This document shows, one piece after another, positions 3,072 through 28,740 of a stretch of DNA of 29,910 nucleotides. This DNA is from a virus (lineage: Duplodnaviria > Caudoviricetes). The notes under the pieces are model-generated. The model saw only the letters and a program-made list of their open reading frames with translations, did no database searches and was not told the DNA's origin. The DNA is taken from positions 1 through 29,910 of the IMG/VR virus record IMGVR_UViG_3300038317_000212; one strand, written 5' to 3'. The first letter of the stretch is position 1. Each line of letters starts with the position of its first letter. A program made the position numbers and the translations under genes.

Positions 3072-3797
3072 ATGGCTGATTCTATATTATATAATGAAGA
3101 CTGTATACGTTCTATGAAGCGTCTCGCTAATGGTTCTATAGACCTTATATTAACTGATCCACCATATAACTTAGGTAATTTTATGAAAGGTAGAGATACA
3201 AACCTAAAAAAGATGCGTGATAACTTTTTTGGTGATGCTGGTTGGGACGATTTAAGTTTTGAGGATTGGGAAAAATCAATGGATAACTTTTTCGAAGAAT
3301 CCGTTCGAGTGCTTAAAAAGGGTGGAGCTATGATTGTATTCATGGCTATTATTAAGGTAGAGAGTATTATTAAAATAGCAGAACGACATGGACTATATTA
3401 TAAGACTACTGGTATTTGGCATAAATTAAATCCTATGCCACGTAACATGAATCTACATTTTGTTAATTCGACGGAAGCGTGGGTTTATTTTACTTACAAG
3501 AAGAAAACAGGCACATTTAATAATGATGGAAAGGTGCTACATGACTTTATTGAAACAGGCGTTGCAGCAAACGGTGAGCGCAAGTTTGGTAAACATCCAA
3601 CACAAAAACCTGTACAATTGATGGAGTTCTTTGTTAAAGTGCTGACCAATGAAGGAGAGACGGTTCTTGATCCCTTTATGGGTAGCGGTAGTGCCGGTGT
3701 GGCTGCAAAATTAAATAATAGGAATTTCATAGGTGTAGAAATAAGTGAGGATTATTTTCAAATCGCTACACGCCGTATTCAAGAGGTGAAAGAATGA
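3072..3797 (+). CDS. Beta-class amino (m6A/m4C) DNA methyltransferase
   Basis: Motif IV DPPY near the N-terminus; HPTQKP and motif I DPFMGSGS near the C-terminus. Confidence 0.92.
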   Translation: MADSILYNEDCIRSMKRLANGSIDLILTDPPYNLGNFMKGRDTNLKKMRDNFFGDAGWDDLSFEDWEKSMDNFFEESVRVLKKGGAMIVFMAIIKVESIIKIAERHGLYYKTTGIWHKLNPMPRNMNLHFVNSTEAWVYFTYKKKTGTFNNDGKVLHDFIETGVAANGERKFGKHPTQKPVQLMEFFVKVLTNEGETVLDPFMGSGSAGVAAKLNNRNFIGVEISEDYFQIATRRIQEVKE

Positions 3798-4855
3798 AGC
3801 CAACAGTGATTGATTTGTTTGCGGGCGTTGGTGGTCTTTCGCTTGGGTTTGAAATGGCCGGTTTTAATATTGTGCTCGCAAATGAATATGACGAATCTAT
3901 AGCTAAAGCATATAAATTAAATCATCCAAATACAAAAATGATTGTTGAGGATATTAGAAATTTACCCATTGAAAAAATATTTCATGAGTATCGTAGAAAG
4001 GTAGATGTTATTATTGGAGGCCCTCCCTGTCAGGGGTTTTCCCAGAAAGGACAAAGAAAAACCATCAACGATGAACGGAACTTTTTATTTAAGTACTTTG
4101 TAGCTGTTGTTGATTTTGTACGTCCACGATATTTTGTAATGGAAAATGTACCGAATCTTTTAACTGCGGAGAATGGTTACTTTAAGGAAGAAATTATAGA
4201 TTTATTTGAGGGTTTAGGATATACATTGTCAACAGACACACTCAATGCCGCCGACTATGGTGTTCCTCAAAATAGAAGAAGAGCTGTGATTATTGGTAAA
4301 CAAGGAGAATCTGCAATTGCAATGCCAAGACCACTTGATTATAAGGTTACAATATGGGATGCAATTAGTGATCTAGCATATTTAAGTTCAGGTGAAGGTG
4401 TAGAATGTGATTCATATAGGTACCCTCCTCAAAGTGAATATCAACGTATGATGCGCGAAGGTAGCGATAATCTATATAATCATAAAGCGACAAAACATTC
4501 AGAGCTGGCAATTGAGAGATTAAAGATGATACCTCCAAATAGAGGGAAAGAGGTATTACCTAAAGAACATTTAACTAAATCAATCTATAGTGGAACCTGG
4601 ACTAGGATGGTCAAAGATGAGATATCTGTAACTATTACAACTAGATTTGATACTCCTTCTTCTGGTAAGTTCACTCATCCATTTTTACATCGAGCAATAA
4701 CCGTGCGAGAGGCTGCAAGGATTCAGTCGTTTCCTGATACGTTTCATTTTATAGGTACAAAAGGTTCACAGATGAAGCAAGTTGGAAATGCTGTTCCGCC
4801 ATTGCTTGCTAAAGCTATTGCAACGGTTGTTATGAATGATATAACAGGAGGATAA
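3794..4855 (+). CDS. DNA (cytosine-5) methyltransferase
   Basis: DLFAGVGG (I), GGPPCQGFS (IV), ENV (VI), QNRRR (VIII), REAARIQSFPD (IX), QVGNAVPP (X); ATGA overlap with the previous gene. Confidence 0.95.
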   Translation: MKPTVIDLFAGVGGLSLGFEMAGFNIVLANEYDESIAKAYKLNHPNTKMIVEDIRNLPIEKIFHEYRRKVDVIIGGPPCQGFSQKGQRKTINDERNFLFKYFVAVVDFVRPRYFVMENVPNLLTAENGYFKEEIIDLFEGLGYTLSTDTLNAADYGVPQNRRRAVIIGKQGESAIAMPRPLDYKVTIWDAISDLAYLSSGEGVECDSYRYPPQSEYQRMMREGSDNLYNHKATKHSELAIERLKMIPPNRGKEVLPKEHLTKSIYSGTWTRMVKDEISVTITTRFDTPSSGKFTHPFLHRAITVREAARIQSFPDTFHFIGTKGSQMKQVGNAVPPLLAKAIATVVMNDITGG

Positions 4856-4858
4856 AAA

Positions 4859-6844
4859 ATGTTAAGACCAGACAATATGGTTAAATATCCAGAAGTGGAT
4901 TTAAAACTAGGAATTAAATCTTCTTTACCAAGTGTAAAGGCAACCTTGGGATTATTAATGATGTTTTGGAGAGCATCAAACAATCCAGATGAACTTGCAT
5001 ACTCGAAAGAAGCAGGTAATTCAATAGAAGTTTCAGATGAGTTAAAAACTAGATTGATTGAAAAGTATCACCCTATTTATTCGTCTATTGGAATTTCCGA
5101 TGAACAGTTTCTTGAACGTGTGAATAATAACCAGTTGTTCAAATCACAGCTAGAATCATTGATTGTAGCATTTGAATTAATTTGGCGTGTTGCAAAAATT
5201 AAGTTTGACAACAATATGCCAGCATCATCTGAGAGAACTGGCGGTAAAAGATATCCTAAAACGCTCCTGTTCACAAAAAATATGGATATTCTTGATACAG
5301 TGCTATCCTCAGACGATGAACAGTATTCAAAAGTTCTCTTATCATGGATAGGGTTAAATATCCCTATTGAATCTACATTTGAAGAAGCTTTGTTGCATTT
5401 GCTTGTTTATATATCTGAGGAAGCGGTGTACAAACTAACTGATGGGGATCAAGATATCATCTTTAATATGAACAGTGTATATATGAAATTGCTGGAGGAA
5501 GAAGAATCTGCAGTTGATATTAACGATAGAAAAGAAGCAAAGGGTTCACTCCGTATATTAAAATCTGCACTATCGGATAAATTAAATCCATTTTTAACAT
5601 ATGGCAATGCAAATGGAGTTGCTATTAAAGATGGGTTAGGAGATAAGTTGAGGGCATATCAAAAGCGTGTCGATGCGTCTTTAAGCTTATCAAATACTAG
5701 ATATATTTTAACGCCTGAAGTTAGTGAAACAGAGAATATGTATCTTCGGGAAGGCTCAAGTGAATATACATACGAAACATCTAGGGTTGCTGGGGGGAGA
5801 AATATACTGCTTTATGGCGTTCCAGGTTCTGGTAAGAGTTGGACTATCGAACATGAGTATTGCAAGAAGGACAGTAATGTGGAACGATTGGTATTCCACC
5901 CTGATTACACCTACTCTGATTTTATTGGTCAGATTTTACCGGATGTATCGGAAGATGGACAAGTTAGCTACAAGTTTACCCCAGGTCCCTTCACTACTAT
6001 TTTGCATGATGCATATGTTAATCCTCAGAAAGAATACATTCTTATAATTGAAGAAATTAACCGTGGAAATGCACCAGCAATTTTTGGAGAAGTGTTCCAA
6101 CTACTCGATAGAAAAGTAGAAATTAAAGATGATGATGACGAGTTTCCTATTGGTACAAGCGAATATGGAATTACTAATAAAAATATAGCGCTTGAGGTTT
6201 ATGGGGATGCCAGACGCAAGGTTCGTATTCCATCAAACCTCTCTATTATAGGAACAATGAATACATCTGATCAAAATGTATTTACTTTGGATACTGCTTT
6301 TCAACGTAGATGGGAAATGCGTATGATCGAAAACAGTTTTGAGAGAGTGGATTCGAACTTTGCAAATGCAGAAATTCTAGATACAACGGTTACATGGAAA
6401 AATTTCTGTGTTTCTATCAATGATATTATTGTTGGAAACAACGCAAGGATGACTTCTGCAGAAGACAAAAGATTGGGTGCGTATTTTGTGCATTTGAGAG
6501 ATTTAAAGTATAATGCCGCATCTGAAGATAGGACAGAGGGTGAATATGAAAGCCTTTGTGAAAAAGAAAAGGAAGGAATTCTTACTTCTGAAGAAGAAAT
6601 GCGTCTTGTTGAAATCAGAGATGCAATGCAACAAAATCGTAGATTCCCAGAAAAGGTTATCAAGTACTTGTGGGATGATGCATTCAAATTCTCACGTGAG
6701 GTAATCTTTGAGACAAACGAATATCAAAGTTTAGAAGCAGTTATCCGTAAATTTATGCAATCTAAGAAATTTGAACGTTTTGAAATATTTAAACAAAATG
6801 TACGTGATGCATTTACAAATCAGAATAACACTAGGCAAAACTAG
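4859..6844 (+). CDS. McrB-like AAA+ GTPase restriction subunit (LlaJI R1-like)
   Basis: Walker A GVPGSGKS, FHPDYTYSDF, Walker B IEEINRGN, McrB signature MNTSDQN, AFQRRW. Confidence 0.9.
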   Translation: MLRPDNMVKYPEVDLKLGIKSSLPSVKATLGLLMMFWRASNNPDELAYSKEAGNSIEVSDELKTRLIEKYHPIYSSIGISDEQFLERVNNNQLFKSQLESLIVAFELIWRVAKIKFDNNMPASSERTGGKRYPKTLLFTKNMDILDTVLSSDDEQYSKVLLSWIGLNIPIESTFEEALLHLLVYISEEAVYKLTDGDQDIIFNMNSVYMKLLEEEESAVDINDRKEAKGSLRILKSALSDKLNPFLTYGNANGVAIKDGLGDKLRAYQKRVDASLSLSNTRYILTPEVSETENMYLREGSSEYTYETSRVAGGRNILLYGVPGSGKSWTIEHEYCKKDSNVERLVFHPDYTYSDFIGQILPDVSEDGQVSYKFTPGPFTTILHDAYVNPQKEYILIIEEINRGNAPAIFGEVFQLLDRKVEIKDDDDEFPIGTSEYGITNKNIALEVYGDARRKVRIPSNLSIIGTMNTSDQNVFTLDTAFQRRWEMRMIENSFERVDSNFANAEILDTTVTWKNFCVSINDIIVGNNARMTSAEDKRLGAYFVHLRDLKYNAASEDRTEGEYESLCEKEKEGILTSEEEMRLVEIRDAMQQNRRFPEKVIKYLWDDAFKFSREVIFETNEYQSLEAVIRKFMQSKKFERFEIFKQNVRDAFTNQNNTRQN

Positions 6845-6861
6845 TAGGGCGGTGATTCTAT

Positions 6862-8142
6862 ATGGAGAGAGATTTAGATATTAGAAGGCGCTGCCATGTA
6901 AATACGAATGAAGATGGAGATCGTTTTGTAGGAGTGAAGGCGGATTCCGATGATGCTATCGTCTATTTTCCATTAGGATATCAGTTGCCTGAAACAGATG
7001 CAGAAATTAGGACTGATATAAAGCATCTTTTTCAAGTGCTTTCGGAATTCACAGAAAAAAAAGACCGTGTGTTTGCAATGAATAAATTCGAGGCACCACA
7101 GACTGTGGACTTTCCCATCCATGCCTACTTAGAAGTAATCAATTATTACTTAGGAAAAGGCGGGCAGTATTACGTTGAAACAGATCCAACCTATGTAACA
7201 AGTGCAAGAGGTAGTGCTCATTGGCCCAAAACATTCCGGAATCAGACTCCGCTTGTACAACAAAAAGATGGTGTAAACTCGCTTATTTATACACAATTTA
7301 CAGTCCGTTCGGTTACACCTAATGAAACAAAACTTATAACCCAGATTAACAGGTATTGCGTTTATGAGAGCTTTGAAAAATTGGGTTGGTTATATGTTCC
7401 ATATATGCCGCCACCACCAGGTCCACATCCTGATATAAAAACATCAATTATCATAATCAATGATAAATTGATGCACACCTTCAATGATAAAGATAAGAGA
7501 TTATTTAAGGCTATGAAGGATATGCTAGAATATTTGGATGAAAAGACATCTGAAAAGCAATTTTACTTTGGTACAGATAACTTTGAAGGCGTTTGGGAGA
7601 GATTGATAGATAGAGTATTTGGAGAGAAGGATAAAGACAAATACTTTCCTCGAACTCGCTGGCTGCTTGACTATGGTAAATACAAAGAAAAGCGTCCGTT
7701 GCTTCCAGATAGTATTATGATATACAACGGTAAGTATTATGTATTAGATGCCAAGTACTATAAATATGGGCGAACTGGTAATCCAGACGACTTACCTAAT
7801 GCATCCTCGATAAATAAGCAGATTACGTATGGTGAGTATTTACATCAAACTCGAAAAATAGCTAATGATTCACTATTTAATGCTTTCATAATGCCATACA
7901 ATATGGCAGATAACTACTTTAACTTAGGGGAACCTATTGGAACAATAGGAGAGGCAGTTGGAGATTGGAAATCTAATAAATTAAACTATGAAAGAATTCA
8001 AGGAATTGTGGTAGATACTAGATACTTAATGTACGTGTATACTGGAAATCCTATAAAATTCAAAGTGCAATTAGCAGATTGCATAGAGGCGGTTCTTTCT
8101 AAAGGTGAAGTGCCGCCACCTAAATTACAAGAGAATAACTGA
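6862..8142 (+). CDS. LlaJI-family (McrC-like PD-(D/E)xK) restriction endonuclease subunit
   Basis: FVG...FPLGY N-terminus, FE.VWE.LID, PD-x-VLDAKYY catalytic motif, SSINKQITYGEY; directly follows the McrB-like gene. Confidence 0.85.
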   Translation: MERDLDIRRRCHVNTNEDGDRFVGVKADSDDAIVYFPLGYQLPETDAEIRTDIKHLFQVLSEFTEKKDRVFAMNKFEAPQTVDFPIHAYLEVINYYLGKGGQYYVETDPTYVTSARGSAHWPKTFRNQTPLVQQKDGVNSLIYTQFTVRSVTPNETKLITQINRYCVYESFEKLGWLYVPYMPPPPGPHPDIKTSIIIINDKLMHTFNDKDKRLFKAMKDMLEYLDEKTSEKQFYFGTDNFEGVWERLIDRVFGEKDKDKYFPRTRWLLDYGKYKEKRPLLPDSIMIYNGKYYVLDAKYYKYGRTGNPDDLPNASSINKQITYGEYLHQTRKIANDSLFNAFIMPYNMADNYFNLGEPIGTIGEAVGDWKSNKLNYERIQGIVVDTRYLMYVYTGNPIKFKVQLADCIEAVLSKGEVPPPKLQENN

Positions 8143-14926: not shown

Positions 14927-15526
14927 TTAATTGATTTTATTGCAGAGTGTCTCTAAATGATAACGAATAACTTCCTTCACCTTTTCTGGAGAGTATACAT
15001 CAGGTCTTAATAAAGCATGAATCGACAATCCCTCTATTAATGCCGTTAACCTACTCTTTTCTAATTCTGCATTCATTGAATCTGATAATACGCCTTTTAG
15101 AGCTAAGATTTCAATCATTGAATTTGCTAATTCATATGTACCGTCCGTCATTTCATCTTTTTTGTCCTTTATTGTATCACTTGTAAGTGAACGTAATGCA
15201 AGAATCCACCAAACACTCGTTTCAATTTTCTTTTCTTCATCTATTGGTACTAGCTCTAATAAAACTTCTTCTACTGCCTGCACTGGGTTTTCTGACCATT
15301 CTATATTTTGAGAACGTTTTTTCCCTTCTTCTAAGTAGTAATTCATAATAAATAATAACATTTCATCTTGAGTTGAAAAATAATGTCTTAACGCACCAGA
15401 AGACATCCCTGCCTCAGCTGCAACTCTTCGTATAGACGCTTTCTCAACCCCTTCTTTCCCAATAATATTCCATGCAGCCTCAGCAATTTGTTTGCGCTTT
15501 TCATCATGATCAACAATTTTTGGCAT
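14927..15526 (-). CDS. TetR/AcrR family regulator (BetI-like C-terminus)
   Basis: MPKIVDHDEKRKQIAEAAW..I...G...ASIR.VA.EAG.S.GALRHYF TetR HTH. Confidence 0.92.
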   Translation of the reverse strand: MPKIVDHDEKRKQIAEAAWNIIGKEGVEKASIRRVAAEAGMSSGALRHYFSTQDEMLLFIMNYYLEEGKKRSQNIEWSENPVQAVEEVLLELVPIDEEKKIETSVWWILALRSLTSDTIKDKKDEMTDGTYELANSMIEILALKGVLSDSMNAELEKSRLTALIEGLSIHALLRPDVYSPEKVKEVIRYHLETLCNKIN

Positions 15527-15548
15527 TATAAAAATCACTTCCTTTATT

Positions 15549-15589
15549 TAGCACAGTGTGTTATTATCTTTTTATAGCACGATGTGTTA
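15549..15589. promoter_or_regulatory. Two palindromic TetR operator candidates
   Basis: TAGCACAGTGTGTTA (15549-15563) and TAGCACGATGTGTTA (15575-15589) lie between the divergent genes. Confidence 0.7.
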
Positions 15590-15629
15590 AATAGATAATA
15601 CCACAACATTTAAAGGAGGACTAGTTTGT

Positions 15630-16343
15630 TTGATCGAAACTATTGAAGCATTGATGCCTTCTTCATCATTAGACATTTCTTCAGCATTAATGATTATTTT
15701 TTTGTGTGCTTTAATTGATATTTTAAGTCCCGGTGTACTGACTGTAACAGCCTATTTATTACTGACACAACCGAATCAGTTATCTTCTCGTTTATTTGTG
15801 TTTTTATTCATCACGCAGTTAGGCTATTTCATCACGGGTTTATTACTCTACTTTGGTGGAAATTCATTATTGAAGAGAATAGAACAATTGTCTCAGTTTG
15901 ACTTTATCAATTGGTTTTATATCCTACTTGGAGCAGTTCTTGTTCTTATAAGCTTCAGTAAACCAAAAGAGACTACAAAAAAACGTTTAATTTCATTTAT
16001 CCCCAATAATACAACTATTAAAGGGATGATTATATTAGGGATCATTGTTTTCCTAATTGAATTTGTAACGGCACTGCCTTACTTCTATTCAATCTTTTTA
16101 ATGTATCATCAAACAATTGAGACTACACCTGCTATCTTAATAATTATTGGATACAATCTAGTAATGGTGCTTCCTTCTCTATTACTATTAGGGGTTAATA
16201 TTATATTTAAAGAAAGGTTGCAACAAATTCTTGTTAAAATGAGGTCAAAATTAAATGAAGCTCCAATCTCTTCACTCTTGGTAGCGATAGGAGTCATAGG
16301 TGCAGTTTTTTTTAATATCGGTCTTAGAGGCATATTAAATTAG
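15630..16343 (+). CDS. GAP/Sap (LysE-superfamily) multi-pass membrane protein
   Basis: AAAGGAGGA RBS with TTG start; about 6 hydrophobic segments; ALID.LSP, EF.TALPY and YNL...LP motifs. Confidence 0.7.
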   Translation: MIETIEALMPSSSLDISSALMIIFLCALIDILSPGVLTVTAYLLLTQPNQLSSRLFVFLFITQLGYFITGLLLYFGGNSLLKRIEQLSQFDFINWFYILLGAVLVLISFSKPKETTKKRLISFIPNNTTIKGMIILGIIVFLIEFVTALPYFYSIFLMYHQTIETTPAILIIIGYNLVMVLPSLLLLGVNIIFKERLQQILVKMRSKLNEAPISSLLVAIGVIGAVFFNIGLRGILN

Positions 16344-23618: not shown

Positions 23619-24170
23619 ATGGCCAAAGATGGAACAAATCGTGGCGGCGCCCGTATAGGCTCCGGTCAAAAAAAGAAACCACTTGCTGACAAAATTGCAG
23701 AGGGGAACCCTGGTAAAAGAAAACTTGAAGTCGTTGAGTTCCAAAATACCGCTGACCTTAAGGGGCAGGAAATGCCAAAGCCAATGGCCATGCTCTCCGC
23801 AGTGCAAAAGTATGGAAAAACCCTAGTAGCGAGTGAAATCTATGAAATTACATGGAAATGGCTTGAGGAGCGAGGCTGTGCTCACTTGGTACTTCCACAG
23901 CTTCTAGAGCGATATGCCATGAGTGCGGCCAGATGGATACAGTGTGAGGAAGCAGTAACCGAGTTTGGCTTTCTAGCCAAGCACCCAACCACCGGCAATG
24001 CTATTCAAAGTCCTTATGTAGCGATGAGTCAGAACTTTATGAGTCAGACAAACAGGCTATGGATGGAGATATATCAAATCGTTCGAGAGAATTGTGCTAC
24101 AGAGTATTCTGGTTTAAATCCACAGGACGACGTGATGGAGCGACTGCTATCTGCCCGCAGAGGAAAATAA
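23619..24170 (+). CDS. Terminase small subunit (P27 family-like)
   Basis: RGGAR.G.G.KKK...GNPG N-terminus; LERYA...ARWIQCE; SPYV; follows HNH. Confidence 0.82.
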   Translation: MAKDGTNRGGARIGSGQKKKPLADKIAEGNPGKRKLEVVEFQNTADLKGQEMPKPMAMLSAVQKYGKTLVASEIYEITWKWLEERGCAHLVLPQLLERYAMSAARWIQCEEAVTEFGFLAKHPTTGNAIQSPYVAMSQNFMSQTNRLWMEIYQIVRENCATEYSGLNPQDDVMERLLSARRGK

Positions 24171-24190
24171 AGATAAGGAGATATGATGTA

Positions 24191-25366
24191 ATGAGTAAAA
24201 GGTACTTAACAGCAGAAAGTGTATGTGCTGGACATCCTGACAAACTATGCGACATCATTGCAGATAGCATTTTGGAAGCTTGCTTACGTAAAGATAGGGC
24301 GTCAAGGGTGGCTTGCGAGGTAATGGCAACCAAGGGAAAAATTATCGTGGCGGGCGAGATCTCCTGCAGCGAGAAAATCGACATCCGATACATTGTTAGA
24401 AATGTCTTAAAAGAGATTGGATACAACCCTCTAAAATTTTTGATTTATGTATATGTACATAATCAAAGTGTAGATATTGCTGCTGGTGTAAATACCGCAC
24501 TGGAAGCACGAAATGGAATAAACGAACAGTACGGTTCCATAGGTGCTGGAGACCAGGGAACTATGTATGGCTATGCTACAAAGGAAACAAGGGAAATGCT
24601 TCCCCTCCCTCTTGTACTGTCTCACAGAATAGTAAAGAGACTGGATGATTGTCGCAAAGGAAAGCTAATAAAAGGGATTCTTCCCGATGGTAAAGCACAA
24701 GTAACGGTGGAATATGAAGCTGACACTCCAGTGAGAATAAAGGCGATCGTGATATCGGTACAGCACGAGAAGAATAAAACAAAGGAAGAACTTAAGGCAG
24801 ATATCCTTAACAATGTCTTATGGCAGTGCTTTGAGGACTTCCCCTTTGATGATGAAACAGAACTTCTCATCAATCCATCAGGTCAGTTCGTTCTTGGTGG
24901 TCCCGCTGCCGATACGGGTTTGACTGGAAGAAAAATCATGGTTGATACCTATGGAGGGCTTGCATCTCATGGAGGTGGTGCTCTTTGTGGTAAAGACCCA
25001 ACCAAAGTTGACCGAAGCGGTGCTTACATGGCTCGGTATATTGCCAAGCATATTGTTTGGTGTGGTTATGCAAAGAAATGTGAAGTGAGTATTTCCTATG
25101 CCATTGGTAAGGCAAACCCAGTAGCCTTTACTGTAAATACCCTTGGTACTGGCACTGTTTCTGATGAAATATTAACTCTTGCTGCCCAAGAGATTTTTAA
25201 CTTAAGACCCGCAGCCATCATTGAAAAACTGCGTCTTAGAAATGTGATTTACTCTGACACCGCGGCTTATGGTCACTTTAATAGTTGTCTGTTCCCGTGG
25301 GAGGATGTAAATAAATACAGTGAATTTAGAAAGGCGGTGGAAAAGTATGTTGATAGAGAAGATTAA
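24191..25366 (+). CDS. metK: S-adenosylmethionine synthetase (phage-encoded)
   Basis: ESV..GHPDK, GAGDQG, DGKAQVT, D.GLTGRKI.VDTYGG, GKDPTKVDRS. Confidence 0.95.
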   Translation: MSKRYLTAESVCAGHPDKLCDIIADSILEACLRKDRASRVACEVMATKGKIIVAGEISCSEKIDIRYIVRNVLKEIGYNPLKFLIYVYVHNQSVDIAAGVNTALEARNGINEQYGSIGAGDQGTMYGYATKETREMLPLPLVLSHRIVKRLDDCRKGKLIKGILPDGKAQVTVEYEADTPVRIKAIVISVQHEKNKTKEELKADILNNVLWQCFEDFPFDDETELLINPSGQFVLGGPAADTGLTGRKIMVDTYGGLASHGGGALCGKDPTKVDRSGAYMARYIAKHIVWCGYAKKCEVSISYAIGKANPVAFTVNTLGTGTVSDEILTLAAQEIFNLRPAAIIEKLRLRNVIYSDTAAYGHFNSCLFPWEDVNKYSEFRKAVEKYVDRED

Positions 25367-26588
25367 AACGAAACAACTCATCCCCGCTGAATATAACCCA
25401 AGGAAAGATTTAAAACCGGGTGATCCAGAATATGAAAAACTTAAACGTTCCCTTGAGGAGTTTGGGTATGTAGAACCCGTTATATGGAATAAGACCACAG
25501 GCAGAGTTATCGGAGGGCATCAACGCTTGAAAGTCCTGCTGAGTATGGGCATGGATGAAATAGAATGCGTAGTTGTCGAAATGGATGAGCAAAAGGAAAA
25601 GGCTCTGAATATTGCACTAAATAAAATAAGTGGCGATTGGGATAAAGATAAATTGGCACTTCTCATTACAGACCTAAATGCTTCTGATTTTGATGTTTCT
25701 CTTACAGGATTTGACCCAGGAGAGTTGGAGGATCTTTTTAAAGATTCCCTTAAGGATAATATAAAAGAAGATGAATTTGATGTAGACAGCGAGCTGAAAA
25801 AGCCCGCTGTTTCGCATTTAGGGGATGTTTGGATACTTGGACAGCATCGATTAGTCTGCGGAGACAGTACAAAGAAAGACACCTTTGATGTCTTGATGGA
25901 AGGGAAAGCTGCCAATCTGGTAGTTACGGACCCTCCATATAACGTTAACTATGAAGGCACTGCCGGAAAAATTAAAAATGACAATATGGCGAATGAAGCG
26001 TTCTATGATTTTCTGCTTGCGGCATTTCAAAACACCGAAGCAGCGATGGCAAAGGACGCTTCTATTTATGTATTCCATGCTGATACGGAAGGACTCAATT
26101 TCAGAAGAGCATTCTCCGATGCAGGATTTTATCTTTCTGGTACTTGTATATGGAAAAAGCAGTCACTTGTTCTCGGTCGCTCTCCTTATCAATGGCAACA
26201 TGAACCTGTACTCTTTGGATGGAAAAGGAAAGGCAAGCATCTCTGGTATTCAGACCGTAAGCAGACCACCATCTGGGAGTTTGAGAAACCGAAGAAAAAC
26301 GGCGACCACCCAACCATGAAACCAGTGGCACTTGTGGCATACCCCATTATGAATTCGAGCCTTAGTAACTGTATCGTGCTTGATCCCTTTGGAGGTTCAG
26401 GAAGTACACTGATTGCCTGTGAGCAGACAGATAGAATTTGTTACACCATTGAACTGGATGAAAAGTACTGCGATGTCATCGTGAAAAGGTATATTGAGCA
26501 AGTTGGAAACTCTGATGGTGTGTTTCTTTTAAGAGATGGTTCGAAATTCAGATATTGTGATTTGCCAGAGGTGAGTGAAGATGAGTAA
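25347..26588 (+). CDS. ParB-N domain plus beta-class amino DNA methyltransferase
   Basis: YNPRK...GYVEPVIWN...GGHQR (ParB/Srx); DPPY; HPTMKP; DPFGGSGST. Confidence 0.9.
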   Translation: MLIEKIKTKQLIPAEYNPRKDLKPGDPEYEKLKRSLEEFGYVEPVIWNKTTGRVIGGHQRLKVLLSMGMDEIECVVVEMDEQKEKALNIALNKISGDWDKDKLALLITDLNASDFDVSLTGFDPGELEDLFKDSLKDNIKEDEFDVDSELKKPAVSHLGDVWILGQHRLVCGDSTKKDTFDVLMEGKAANLVVTDPPYNVNYEGTAGKIKNDNMANEAFYDFLLAAFQNTEAAMAKDASIYVFHADTEGLNFRRAFSDAGFYLSGTCIWKKQSLVLGRSPYQWQHEPVLFGWKRKGKHLWYSDRKQTTIWEFEKPKKNGDHPTMKPVALVAYPIMNSSLSNCIVLDPFGGSGSTLIACEQTDRICYTIELDEKYCDVIVKRYIEQVGNSDGVFLLRDGSKFRYCDLPEVSEDE

Positions 26589-28740
26589 ATTGACACTTGG
26601 TTCCCTCTTTGATGGCAGTGGTGGTTTTCCTTTAGGTGGTTTGCTTTGTGGCATTGAGCCTTTATGGGCATCTGAAATTGAGCCGTTTCCTGTACGGGTT
26701 ACGACCAAACGCATCCCTCAGATGAAGCATTATGGGGATATCAACAAATTGAATGGTGCGGAGCTTCCGCCTGTAGATATTATAACCTTTGGCTCTCCCT
26801 GCACAGATATGAGTGTGGCGGGGAAAAGAGCTGGTCTGGATGGAGAGCAATCCGTCCTTTTTTATGAAGCAATCCGAATTATCAAGGAAATGAGGTGTAA
26901 GACCAATGGACAATATCCAAGGTATGCAGTATGGGAAAATGTCCCCGGCGCATTCTCATCAAATAAAGGAGAAGACTTCAAGGCAGTCCTCGAAACGGTC
27001 ATCAGCGTCAAAGAGCCGAACACCTCGGTGCCTTTACCTGAAAAAGGACGATGGCCTTACGCAGACATCTATATGGGAGACGGATGGAGTGTGGCTTACC
27101 GAACTATCGATGCGCAATATTTCGGAGTCCCCCAACGTCGTCGTAGAATCTACCTTGTCGCAGATTTTGCAGACAAATGTGCCGGAGAAATACTATTTGA
27201 GTCCGAAGGCATGCCAAGGGATTTTACGCCGAGCGGCAGCCCGTGGCAAAGAACTGCCGACAATGCTAAAAACTGCACTGGAAAAACAGGCGATAGCATA
27301 ACTTGCCTAAATGACCAAGGCGGAAGAGTGATGTCTGTTTCTAAAGATATTACAGCAACACTTCGAGCAGAGGAACATGGACATCAGCCTTGCATAATGC
27401 AGTCAAGCGGATTTTGTACTGAACACAGTGCCAAGAGCAGAAGTGTAGGATATGAGGAAGAACGCTCCCCTACACTTAGAGCAGGTGTTGTCCCGGGTGC
27501 AGTCATGTCCTTTGAACCGGGCGCTGCTTCTCGAGTTGGTGGCCATACTGACGAAAACTTAAGTGGATCACTTCGTGCAAACATGGGAGATAATCAAACA
27601 GCTGTAGTCATAGAAAACCATCCAACTGATAGCCGTGTGAAACTCTCGGAGGATAATAAAGTACAGACGCTGACTTCTCGGATGGGAACTGGTGGCGGGA
27701 ATGTACCCCTTATTATGAACACTCCTAAAACGTTAAAAATCCGCTCCGGCTGTGAAGGCGGTGGTAAGGGTGCATTGATACAAGATGATAAGTCTGCAAC
27801 TCTTGGATGCAATAATGATCAAACCGTTTTTGTGCCTACCGCATATGGAATCTGCTCTGATAAAAGCAATTCCATGCAGTCAAGCAATCCACATAGCGGT
27901 ATATATGAAGCGGATACTTCTCGAACTATTGATGCCAATGGAGGAAATCCAGGGTGTAATCAAGGTGGTATTGCAGTGGTTGCTCTGCAAGGCTCGATGA
28001 TTGGAAGAGAGGATAAAAACGGTCCCCAAGGAAGCGGTATAGATGAAGATGTTTCTTTTACGCTTAATACCGCTGATCGCCATGCTGTTGCCTATGCCAT
28101 GACTACCGGAGCCTATGCACAGGTCGAAGAAGATAAAGCACCTACTCTATTGTCGAGAGATTACAAGGATGCCCCTGTAGTGACTCAGCCCTCTTACGGT
28201 ATTGATCGGGCGGCTTTTAATCAAGGAAAGAACGCTCTATTTAAACCGACTATAGATGAAGAACAGCAACCTACGCTCACAGCAAAAGGTCCTGGAGCAG
28301 TGGCGCACCCAGCTTCGTTTTATCCTCAGATGAAAGCTGAAAGTCAATGCTACAGACAGGACGATACATCAAATACGATTATCAATGGTACCAATCCAGG
28401 CTATCAAAATGGATTGGTTGAGCCGGACTATATTGTTCGAAGGCTTACGCCAACGGAATGTGCAAGATTGCAAGGTTTTCCCGATGATTGGTGCGATGAT
28501 CTTGGTACGGAAAATCCTAAAGAAGATGAAATTTCATTCTGGACGCAGGTTTGGGAAACTCACCGCAAAATTATAGGTAAAAGCAAAAGGCCAAAAACAA
28601 GAAATAAGATTATAAAATGGCTTAACAATCCTCATTCCGATGCAGCTGAATATAAAATGTGGGGTAATGGCGTAGCACTTCCATGCGTTTGTTTTGTGCT
28701 GACTGGCATTGTGTTATCTACACAAAATACCGCCGATTAA
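26581..28740 (+). CDS. Large DNA (cytosine-5) methyltransferase with expanded variable region
   Basis: SLFDGSGG (I), GSPC (IV), ENV (VI), QRRRR (VIII), roughly 430 aa of variable region, RRLTPTECARLQGFPD (IX), GNGV (X). Confidence 0.92.
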   Translation: MSKLTLGSLFDGSGGFPLGGLLCGIEPLWASEIEPFPVRVTTKRIPQMKHYGDINKLNGAELPPVDIITFGSPCTDMSVAGKRAGLDGEQSVLFYEAIRIIKEMRCKTNGQYPRYAVWENVPGAFSSNKGEDFKAVLETVISVKEPNTSVPLPEKGRWPYADIYMGDGWSVAYRTIDAQYFGVPQRRRRIYLVADFADKCAGEILFESEGMPRDFTPSGSPWQRTADNAKNCTGKTGDSITCLNDQGGRVMSVSKDITATLRAEEHGHQPCIMQSSGFCTEHSAKSRSVGYEEERSPTLRAGVVPGAVMSFEPGAASRVGGHTDENLSGSLRANMGDNQTAVVIENHPTDSRVKLSEDNKVQTLTSRMGTGGGNVPLIMNTPKTLKIRSGCEGGGKGALIQDDKSATLGCNNDQTVFVPTAYGICSDKSNSMQSSNPHSGIYEADTSRTIDANGGNPGCNQGGIAVVALQGSMIGREDKNGPQGSGIDEDVSFTLNTADRHAVAYAMTTGAYAQVEEDKAPTLLSRDYKDAPVVTQPSYGIDRAAFNQGKNALFKPTIDEEQQPTLTAKGPGAVAHPASFYPQMKAESQCYRQDDTSNTIINGTNPGYQNGLVEPDYIVRRLTPTECARLQGFPDDWCDDLGTENPKEDEISFWTQVWETHRKIIGKSKRPKTRNKIIKWLNNPHSDAAEYKMWGNGVALPCVCFVLTGIVLSTQNTAD
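26906..27301 (+). CDS. Nested +1-frame ORF within the m5C MTase (EcoHK31I beta-like polypeptide)
   Basis: 131 aa; GAGGTG RBS ~10 nt upstream of the ATG; C-terminal LSQILQTNVPEKYYLSPKACQGILRRA..RGK.LP..L..AL. Confidence 0.6.
   Translation: MDNIQGMQYGKMSPAHSHQIKEKTSRQSSKRSSASKSRTPRCLYLKKDDGLTQTSIWETDGVWLTELSMRNISESPNVVVESTLSQILQTNVPEKYYLSPKACQGILRRAAARGKELPTMLKTALEKQAIA

Follow-up and report, generated by a model that had tools for sequence, protein, structure and literature searches.

The stretch of DNA analyzed here (the window) is a 29.9-kb virus record, and all positions are numbered from its first letter. It encodes a primase, a helicase, an HNH protein, a small terminase, an S-adenosylmethionine (SAM) synthetase and a ParB-fused N6/N4 methyltransferase (MTase), followed, in the prophage packaging region, by an open reading frame (ORF) for a C5-cytosine DNA methyltransferase (C5-MTase; 26575-28740, plus strand, 721 amino acids (aa) from GTG 26575). 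The subject of this work is a second ORF nested in that gene, which appears to encode a small subunit (beta) of the enzyme whose main chain is called alpha. The main gene probably starts at ATG 26581 (719 aa) and not at GTG 26575, because pairing to the anti-Shine-Dalgarno sequence is stronger there (-11.7 vs -5.2 kcal/mol). Alpha was assigned to the C5-MTases (PF00145) on its motifs I (FxGxG), IV (PC), VI (ENV), VIII (QxRxR), IX and X and its HhaI-type fold; motifs carry their conventional C5-MTase names and were placed by alignment to M.HhaI. The nested ORF (26906-27301, plus strand) starts with ATG, is offset by +1 to the main ORF and comprises 131 aa, for a predicted chain of 14.7 kDa. It overlaps main codons 112-243, which include motif VI (ENV, 121-123), motif VII, motif VIII (QRRRR, 187-191) and about 50 codons beyond. 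A GAGGTG at 26892-26897 stands 8 nucleotides before its ATG, and an in-frame TGA (26891-26893), five codons before the ATG, sets the upstream limit of the frame. An earlier note on this DNA, made from the letters alone, had described a 131-codon +1 ORF with a GAGGTG over motifs VI-VIII, and this description was accurate.

Judged from the single sequence of the window, the case for the nested ORF is modest, because the +1 frame stayed open in 893 of 20000 codon-weighted (4.5%) and in 166 of 5000 uniform synonymous recodings. We then analyzed relatives fetched with main-frame residues 1-242, a query blind to the nested frame. Of 572 confirmed stretches, the best 80 were used; they have 69-98% identity and come from Bacillus, Clostridium, Tissierella, Oscillospiraceae and others; 75 sequences, the window included, were left after identical starts were dropped. 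These homologues share ancestry, so that the counts obtained from them are not independent events. The nested ORF was intact at offset +1 within the main ORF in 80/80 loci, one of them clipped by the end of its contig. Where synonymous choice would allow a stop in the +1 frame, none was realised in the overlap (0/775; 0/337, 0/184 and 0/254 by part), compared to about 25% outside it (359/1419 upstream, 615/2573 in the variable region and 198/805 at the C-terminus). The start codon was ATG in 73 and GTG in 2 of the 75 sequences, and GAGG preceded it in all 75. The Arg107 codon that forms this GAGG was AGG in 75/75, and the other arginine columns examined had mixed codons. The entropy of four-fold sites was 0.86 in the overlap (22 sites), compared to 1.59 upstream (29 sites) and 1.72 at the C-terminus (20 sites). 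Both signals by which the earlier note had proposed to check the frame, stop avoidance and suppressed synonymous variation among homologues, were present.

The substitutions themselves follow the nested frame. At main codons 201-240, amino-acid identity was 0.77 in the +1 frame vs 0.51 in the main frame (600 sampled pairs). Among 18 close relatives, only 3 of 75 possible alleles that are silent in the main frame and change the +1 frame were seen at codons 201-241, vs 84/195 upstream; alleles silent in +1 and changing the main frame reached 24/81 at these codons and 10/189 upstream. When single bases were classified against the window codon, two alleles at codons 112-200 seemed to create stops (1/15 and 1/34); as the frames of those loci are open, changes of several bases within a codon are their most likely origin. 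In the nested protein, residues C42-L43 are invariant or nearly so among homologues. Taken together, the homologue data place the nested ORF far beyond chance, and the substitution pattern has one simple cause, a second protein under selection.

Regarding the identity of this protein, neither Pfam nor NCBIfam has a family for it, the PHROGs search gave a single weak match (phrog_16143, E 4e-4) and the nested-family profile found nothing meaningful among PDB sequences (best E 0.68). A relation to the two-chain enzyme M.EcoHK31I was found through a primer given in the supplement of PMC2836561, which led to an EcoHK31I-type locus; 81 of 5426 E. coli genomes matched. The E. coli locus L245 encodes an alpha of 309 aa, a +1-frame beta of 176 aa and an adjoining NotI-family endonuclease. 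Its beta has Met17 and Met26, as the excerpts of PMC2836561 describe, and its ends match the primers of that paper, suggesting that it is the EcoHK31I system or a near-identical allele. Nested residues 10-130 align to residues 15-111 of this beta (hhalign probability 98%, E 2.7e-13, 39% identity), and its alpha (6-183) is 35% identical to window main residues 3-209. The motif IX part of this beta (151-169) aligns to window main residues 621-639, with 12 of 19 positions identical, and because of this alignment the nested protein is best described, by homology, as EcoHK31I beta minus motif IX. Over the 80 window-like loci, motif IX lay in the ORF that bears motif VIII in 67, in beta in 0 and in another ORF in 3, and the regular expression saw none in 10. 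The two-chain organization put forward in the earlier note is supported by this homology, and so is its statement that the main frame keeps motifs IX (621-639) and X (693-700), unlike the EcoHK31I prototype, in which motif IX belongs to beta.

The nested protein carries a segment, L..IL...V.EKYYL, that ties it to single-chain enzymes. Viral contigs were scanned for DILE..V.EKYYL, which gave at least 120 loci. Among the 120 matches listed, 75 had the segment in frame in a single-chain enzyme, downstream of motifs VI and VIII, and 34 had it in the +1 frame over motif VIII, in further nested genes; the other 11 were unplaced or ambiguous. In the single-chain enzymes the +1 frame after motif VI was open in just 1/75. 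The same segment thus exists in two states, in frame or nested in +1. As the earlier note had stated, the segment follows motif VIII in single-chain enzymes and the main frame of the window lacks it, encoding other sequence at that place; its placement at the very C-terminus of the nested protein did not hold, since LSQILQTNVPEKYYLS covers residues 84-99 and 32 more follow. A hidden Markov model (HMM) of the beta C-terminus matched neither 6 unselected single-chain MTases nor the two nested-type alphas, and some single-chain enzymes thus have no recognisable copy of the segment. An hhalign comparison of the nested family to single-chain enzymes (94%, E 1e-7) is inflated and was not relied on, because those enzymes were chosen by the motif; the split between in-frame and +1 copies was used instead. 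In other phage families (L272, L283, L285, L301, L349 and others), shorter nested +1 proteins end a few residues past EKYYLS and lack the RRA..RGK.LP helices; the nested state extends beyond the family studied here.

Structure prediction with AlphaFold2 (AF2) gave confident models of alpha 1-207 and 620-719, with a high predicted local distance difference test (pLDDT), and left the middle unfolded; the alpha model superimposed on M.HhaI with Z 23.5 and a root-mean-square deviation (rmsd) of 2.5 over 232 aligned residues. Both chains were then co-folded, as the earlier note had suggested, from three pieces (alpha 1-280, alpha 590-719 and beta) with custom alignments. The ipSAE was 0.83, 0.82 and 0.83, compared to 0.02 for the best of 3 controls, with a contact agreement of at least 69% and a partner pLDDT of 70-71; the mark used is reached by 116/157 solved complexes and 2/215 mismatched pairs. 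In this prediction (alpha numbered from ATG 26581), motif IX (619-626) is contacted by beta 88-89 and 96-98, the motif VIII region (175-180 and 206-207) by beta 70-76, and alpha 162-166 by the conserved C42-L43-Y44 strand of beta; L84, L88 and Y96-L98 are among the beta residues placed against motif IX. These predicted contacts fit the sequence evidence.

We propose, with a probability of about 0.85, that the 131-residue product of the nested gene is a beta subunit which, according to the predictions, binds the main chain and thereby completes a DNA cytosine methyltransferase of two chains. Conservation extends to the ORF, its start codon and its Shine-Dalgarno sequence, with selection acting at the protein level, and ribosomes would initiate internally at ATG 26906 on the same mRNA. 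The putative product, which is homologous to EcoHK31I beta and carries the L..IL...V.EKYYL segment, is predicted to pair through residues 37-47 with an alpha insertion between motifs VI and VII, to run along motif VIII with residues 69-89 and to clamp onto motif IX with residues 88-98, which would rebuild the link between the catalytic and the small domain. Alpha alone would be inactive or weak, as in EcoHK31I, where beta is required and alpha without it is inactive (excerpts of PMC2836561). Because no restriction gene stands beside it, the enzyme is read as an orphan that would shield phage DNA from host restriction, possibly at several sites via tandem T[LI] modules; excerpts of PMC12707154 give a basis for such an anti-restriction role of an orphan phage enzyme.

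Several observations weigh against this proposal. All ten motifs are present in the main chain, whose catalytic domain AF2 folds in the absence of beta, and alpha may therefore have some activity on its own. The reason why EcoHK31I needs its beta has been proven, but it does not carry over directly to the window beta, which lacks motif IX. Beta modelled alone is poor (pLDDT 59) except for its C-terminal helices, and its first 36 or so residues have no confident role. A three-piece co-fold with custom alignments falls outside the calibration, and pieces of a split enzyme may pass it by their likeness to solved single-chain MTases. Finally, the shared ancestry of the homologues reduces the weight of their counts.

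The same two features of alpha, its ten motifs and its confidently predicted catalytic domain, would suit a nested protein that is made and binds alpha as a dispensable modulator (of stability, of specificity among the T[LI] modules, or as an inhibitor), all the more as co-folding cannot separate an activator from an inhibitor. We regard this as unlikely: single-chain enzymes contain the beta segment in frame as an integral part (75 of the 120 matches listed), beta is present in all 80 window-like and all 80 P1-like loci, and N-terminal trimming of EcoHK31I beta, with motif IX intact, already lowers binding and activity according to the excerpts of PMC2836561.

Ribosomal frameshifting would use the same frame differently, either by a +1 shift near motif VIII giving a short alpha(I-VIII)-beta(84-131) chain or by a -1 shift at the end of beta giving a beta-variable region-IX-X chain. 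Natural beta-IX-X fusions exist, two single-contig proteins (P0010, P0025) join alpha N-terminal motifs to the C-terminal part of beta, and A5 runs occur at 27041, 27268 and 27282. However, optional stops are unused in both halves of the ORF alike (0/337 in the 5' half and 0/184 in the 3' half), its start codon and Shine-Dalgarno sequence are conserved in 75/75, C42-L43 are invariant or nearly so, and the sole X XXY YYZ heptamer, at 26933, is far from motif VIII. The short isoform would also be devoid of motifs IX and X, and motifs VI and VIII are in frame in 68/68 scored loci. Frameshifting is thus very improbable, and the +1 shift near motif VIII that the earlier note had offered as an alternative found no support, because the 5' half of the ORF, its own start codon and its Shine-Dalgarno sequence are all conserved. 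The least credible explanation is that the frame is untranslated, as a by-product of main-frame codons, a relic or the trace of a constraint on the nucleic acid; the window alone indeed stays open in 3-4.5% of recodings. The homologue data argue largely to its refutation: substitutions track the +1 protein and not the bases (at codons 201-241, 24/81 for +1-silent and 3/75 for +1-changing alleles), the +1 frame after motif VI is open in 1/75 single-chain loci, and homologues occur in Bacillota, Proteobacteria and mycobacteriophages.

The nested protein matches 535 plasmid records, 450 of them from Escherichia, and 214 phage records, and among the plasmid matches listed most lie under a Dam-family MTase gene on P1-like plasmids. 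Its homologues extend to Bacillota, Proteobacteria and mycobacteriophages. In phage P1, the dmt gene (NC_005856, AF234172) contains an unannotated 162-aa +1 ORF with 34 of 70 residues identical to the nested protein, and the omission of the nested ORF from P1 and other records confirms that standard annotation misses it. A +1-frame beta match (HMM domain E up to 0.05) was found in 80/80 of the best 80 of 373 P1-like loci (query, P1 Dmt residues 1-240); the regular expression misses some betas seen by the HMM, a gap that concerned 12/80 of these loci. The name dmt-B was considered for the nested P1 frame and is not borne out by the excerpts of PMC10695390, in which dmt-A/dmt-B denotes a split allele in P1vir.

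The search for longer beta-containing proteins gave 1587 matches among 7998 scored candidates. Fifteen of the 17 longer proteins read contain a whole N-terminal beta in frame with the variable region and motifs IX-X, and the beta-IX-X fusion was seen at the DNA level in six loci (L087, L088, L095, L107, L142, L169). These fusions mark beta as a natural component of the enzyme, although some of them may reflect frameshift errors or alleles that are broken. The remaining 2/17 are fusions to unrelated proteins and look like assembly chimeras. The 772 homologous proteins are gene-caller predictions and were not counted as expression evidence.

Rearranged relatives were also observed. In mycobacteriophages Omega and Dove (L081:1634-2938; L082:1625-2743), beta is nested inside a gene for motifs I-VIII and motifs IX-X are in the next gene, so that these phages appear to encode the enzyme in three pieces. 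In L086-L164 (relatives of P0176; e.g. L090:2182-3660, L103:2152-4086), the main ORF is circularly permuted, with the order III-VIII, variable region, IX, X, I-II, and the nested +1 ORF for beta is retained in it. Motifs VI and VIII were out of frame in 11/52 scored loci of this permuted group (L094, L102, L115, L125, L127-L130, L135, L151, L157), all 11 with a G8-G11 run in the overlap, and several in-frame permuted loci carry G7, G8 or G11; VI and VIII were in frame in 68/68 scored window-like and 76/76 P1-like loci. This poly-G pattern resembles phase variation by strand slippage, which would disrupt the two chains together, although errors in the assembly of homopolymers are possible.

Between motifs VIII and IX, the window chain has 10 T[LI] modules, and 63 homologues have 5-11, with module count and region length correlated (r 0.77). 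AF2 gives this region no confident fold. In line with the tandem principle of target-recognition domains (TRDs) described in the excerpts of PMC12707154, the modules suggest a multispecific candidate TRD array with several target sites.

The features of the C5-MTase gene and its upstream neighbour are collected in Table 1. In the window, the SAM synthetase, ParB-N6/N4 MTase and C5-MTase genes are grouped directly after the small terminase gene (24059-28740) and form a phage methylation module that carries its own methyl-donor supply. The neighbours of the C5-MTase are the ParB-N6/N4 MTase and an amidoligase-like gene, and no cognate endonuclease stands beside it; the McrB/LlaJI-type genes at 4859-8142 have their own MTases. 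These belong to a restriction-modification cassette of the LlaJI type, which lies at the left end of the record (3072-8142), with an N6/N4 MTase, a single-chain C5-MTase, an McrB-like AAA protein and a LlaJI-family endonuclease in a row. At 14927-16343, the replication module is split by the gene of a TetR-family regulator and a divergent gene for an SfLAP-family membrane protein, probably a cargo insertion. Promoter and terminator scans stayed at chance level (9 vs 14.3 and 9 vs 7.4). Two sets of raw RNA reads gave 0 and 1 read on the region, and two RNA-library assemblies contain it as contigs, from which neither strand nor translation can be read.

Table 1. Positions of the two overlapping genes, their motifs and the upstream neighbour in the window.
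Feature	Positions	Strand	Evidence
Alpha (main) chain of the C5-MTase, in the order motifs I-VIII, long variable region, motifs IX and X	26581..28740	+	PF00145 E 3e-41; TIGR00675 over cut-off; AF2 model vs M.HhaI Z 23.5, rmsd 2.5, 232 aligned
Shine-Dalgarno GAGGTG of the nested gene, made by main codons ATG-AGG-TG (M106-R107)	26892..26897	+	R107 = AGG in 75/75; GAGG in 75/75
Nested +1-frame gene, 131 aa, putative EcoHK31I-beta-like small subunit without motif IX	26906..27301	+	Intact in 80/80 loci; hhalign 98%; co-fold 0.83 vs 0.02
Nested residues 84-99, LSQILQTNVPEKYYLS, post-motif-VIII segment of single-chain C5-MTases read in +1	27155..27202	+	Motif scan; residues 88-89 and 96-98 predicted on motif IX
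Motif IV catalytic Pro-Cys, P75-C76 (numbered from GTG 26575)	26797..26802	+	Invariant in 57-sequence alignment; aligned to HhaI
Variable region, 10 T[LI] modules at intervals of 32-45 aa; candidate TRDs in tandem	27337..28404	+	Module count; low AF2 confidence
Motif IX, main frame, VRRLTPTECARLQGFPDDW, residues 621-639	28435..28491	+	Aligned to HhaI 271-289 and EcoHK31I-type beta 151-169 (12/19 identical)
Motif X core YKMWGNGV, main frame, residues 693-700	28651..28674	+	Sequence alignment
Upstream neighbour, ParB-N fused N6/N4 DNA methyltransferase; stop overlaps C5-MTase start	25347..26588	+	PF01555, PF02195; phrog_498

Beyond this locus, we find it rather probable that a widespread class of phage and prophage cytosine MTases (Bacillota prophages, coliphage P1, cluster J mycobacteriophages) consists of obligate two-chain enzymes, whose hidden +1 subunit would be a relocated core piece, the post-motif-VIII clamp on motif IX, and not motif IX itself. 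EcoHK31I would then be a derived offshoot; the overlap would let downstream modules pass between chains, as in the beta-IX-X fusions and the circular permutation, and in some lineages one poly-G tract would switch both frames. Few nested protein-coding genes under clear selection are annotated in prokaryotes, and the present one is conserved across phyla within a phage gene that is very common. Should beta be needed, a clone made by codon optimisation or synthesis of the annotated ORF would lose its activity without warning, and such a loss of beta may partly explain why the cytosine activity of P1 Dmt is still given as 'perhaps'. The finding also refines how textbooks describe M.EcoHK31I, with a beta that 'contains only motif IX', as the conserved beta core is a different segment. 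In the literature searched, the nested frame is not described for any phage MTase; most older papers, the P1 genome paper and REBASE were outside this search, and a prior mention is possible. The excerpts of PMC3706429 and PMC11855218 contain no nested frame, the latter reporting an out-of-frame HNH insertion, which is a different thing.

The multispecific MTases of Bacillus phages, SPR and phi3T, are single chains. The window enzyme resembles them as an orphan phage C5-MTase with a long, modular and length-variable region between motifs VIII and IX. With single-chain C5-MTases in general (M.HhaI, M.HaeIII and the phage Dcm-type enzymes with DILE..V.EKYYL), it shares the ten motifs, the fold (HhaI Z 23.5) and, through beta, the post-VIII segment; in those enzymes, however, the segment lies in frame 31-61 aa after motif VIII among the matches listed, and the +1 frame is closed (open in 1/75). 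P1 Dmt is close to the window enzyme in its N-terminal half, a C5-MTase that has both motif VIII and motif IX in the main frame and contains a nested +1 ORF; it differs by its fusion to a Dam-type adenine MTase and by a C5 activity annotated just as 'perhaps'. M.AquI, according to the excerpts of PMC3404938, is also a natural two-polypeptide C5-MTase, cut once in the variable region into I-VIII and a small chain with the distal variable region and motifs IX-X. In contrast, the second chain of the window is an internal segment read in an overlapping frame and has neither of these motifs; the beta-IX-X fusions of its relatives approach the AquI layout.

The closest known system is M.EcoHK31I (YGGCCR, E. 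coli HK31; excerpts of PMC2836561 and PMC3404938), in which the beta gene also lies wholly inside the alpha gene, in +1, with its start before motif VI. The second chain of the window is homologous to this beta and has the same +1 offset as in L245, and, as in the window and P1, beta is unannotated in the RefSeq record of the E. coli locus. The EcoHK31I beta has 176 aa and ends with the motif IX that its alpha lacks, whereas the window has a beta of 131 aa and a main chain that includes motif IX. The alpha chains differ as well, with 719 aa and about 10 T[LI] modules in the window vs 309 aa in EcoHK31I. Unlike the E. coli locus with its NotI-family endonuclease, the window gene has no adjacent restriction gene and lies in a prophage packaging region. 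Overall, these comparisons describe a putative enzyme that works like M.EcoHK31I, without the motif IX that defines the beta of that system and without a cognate endonuclease.

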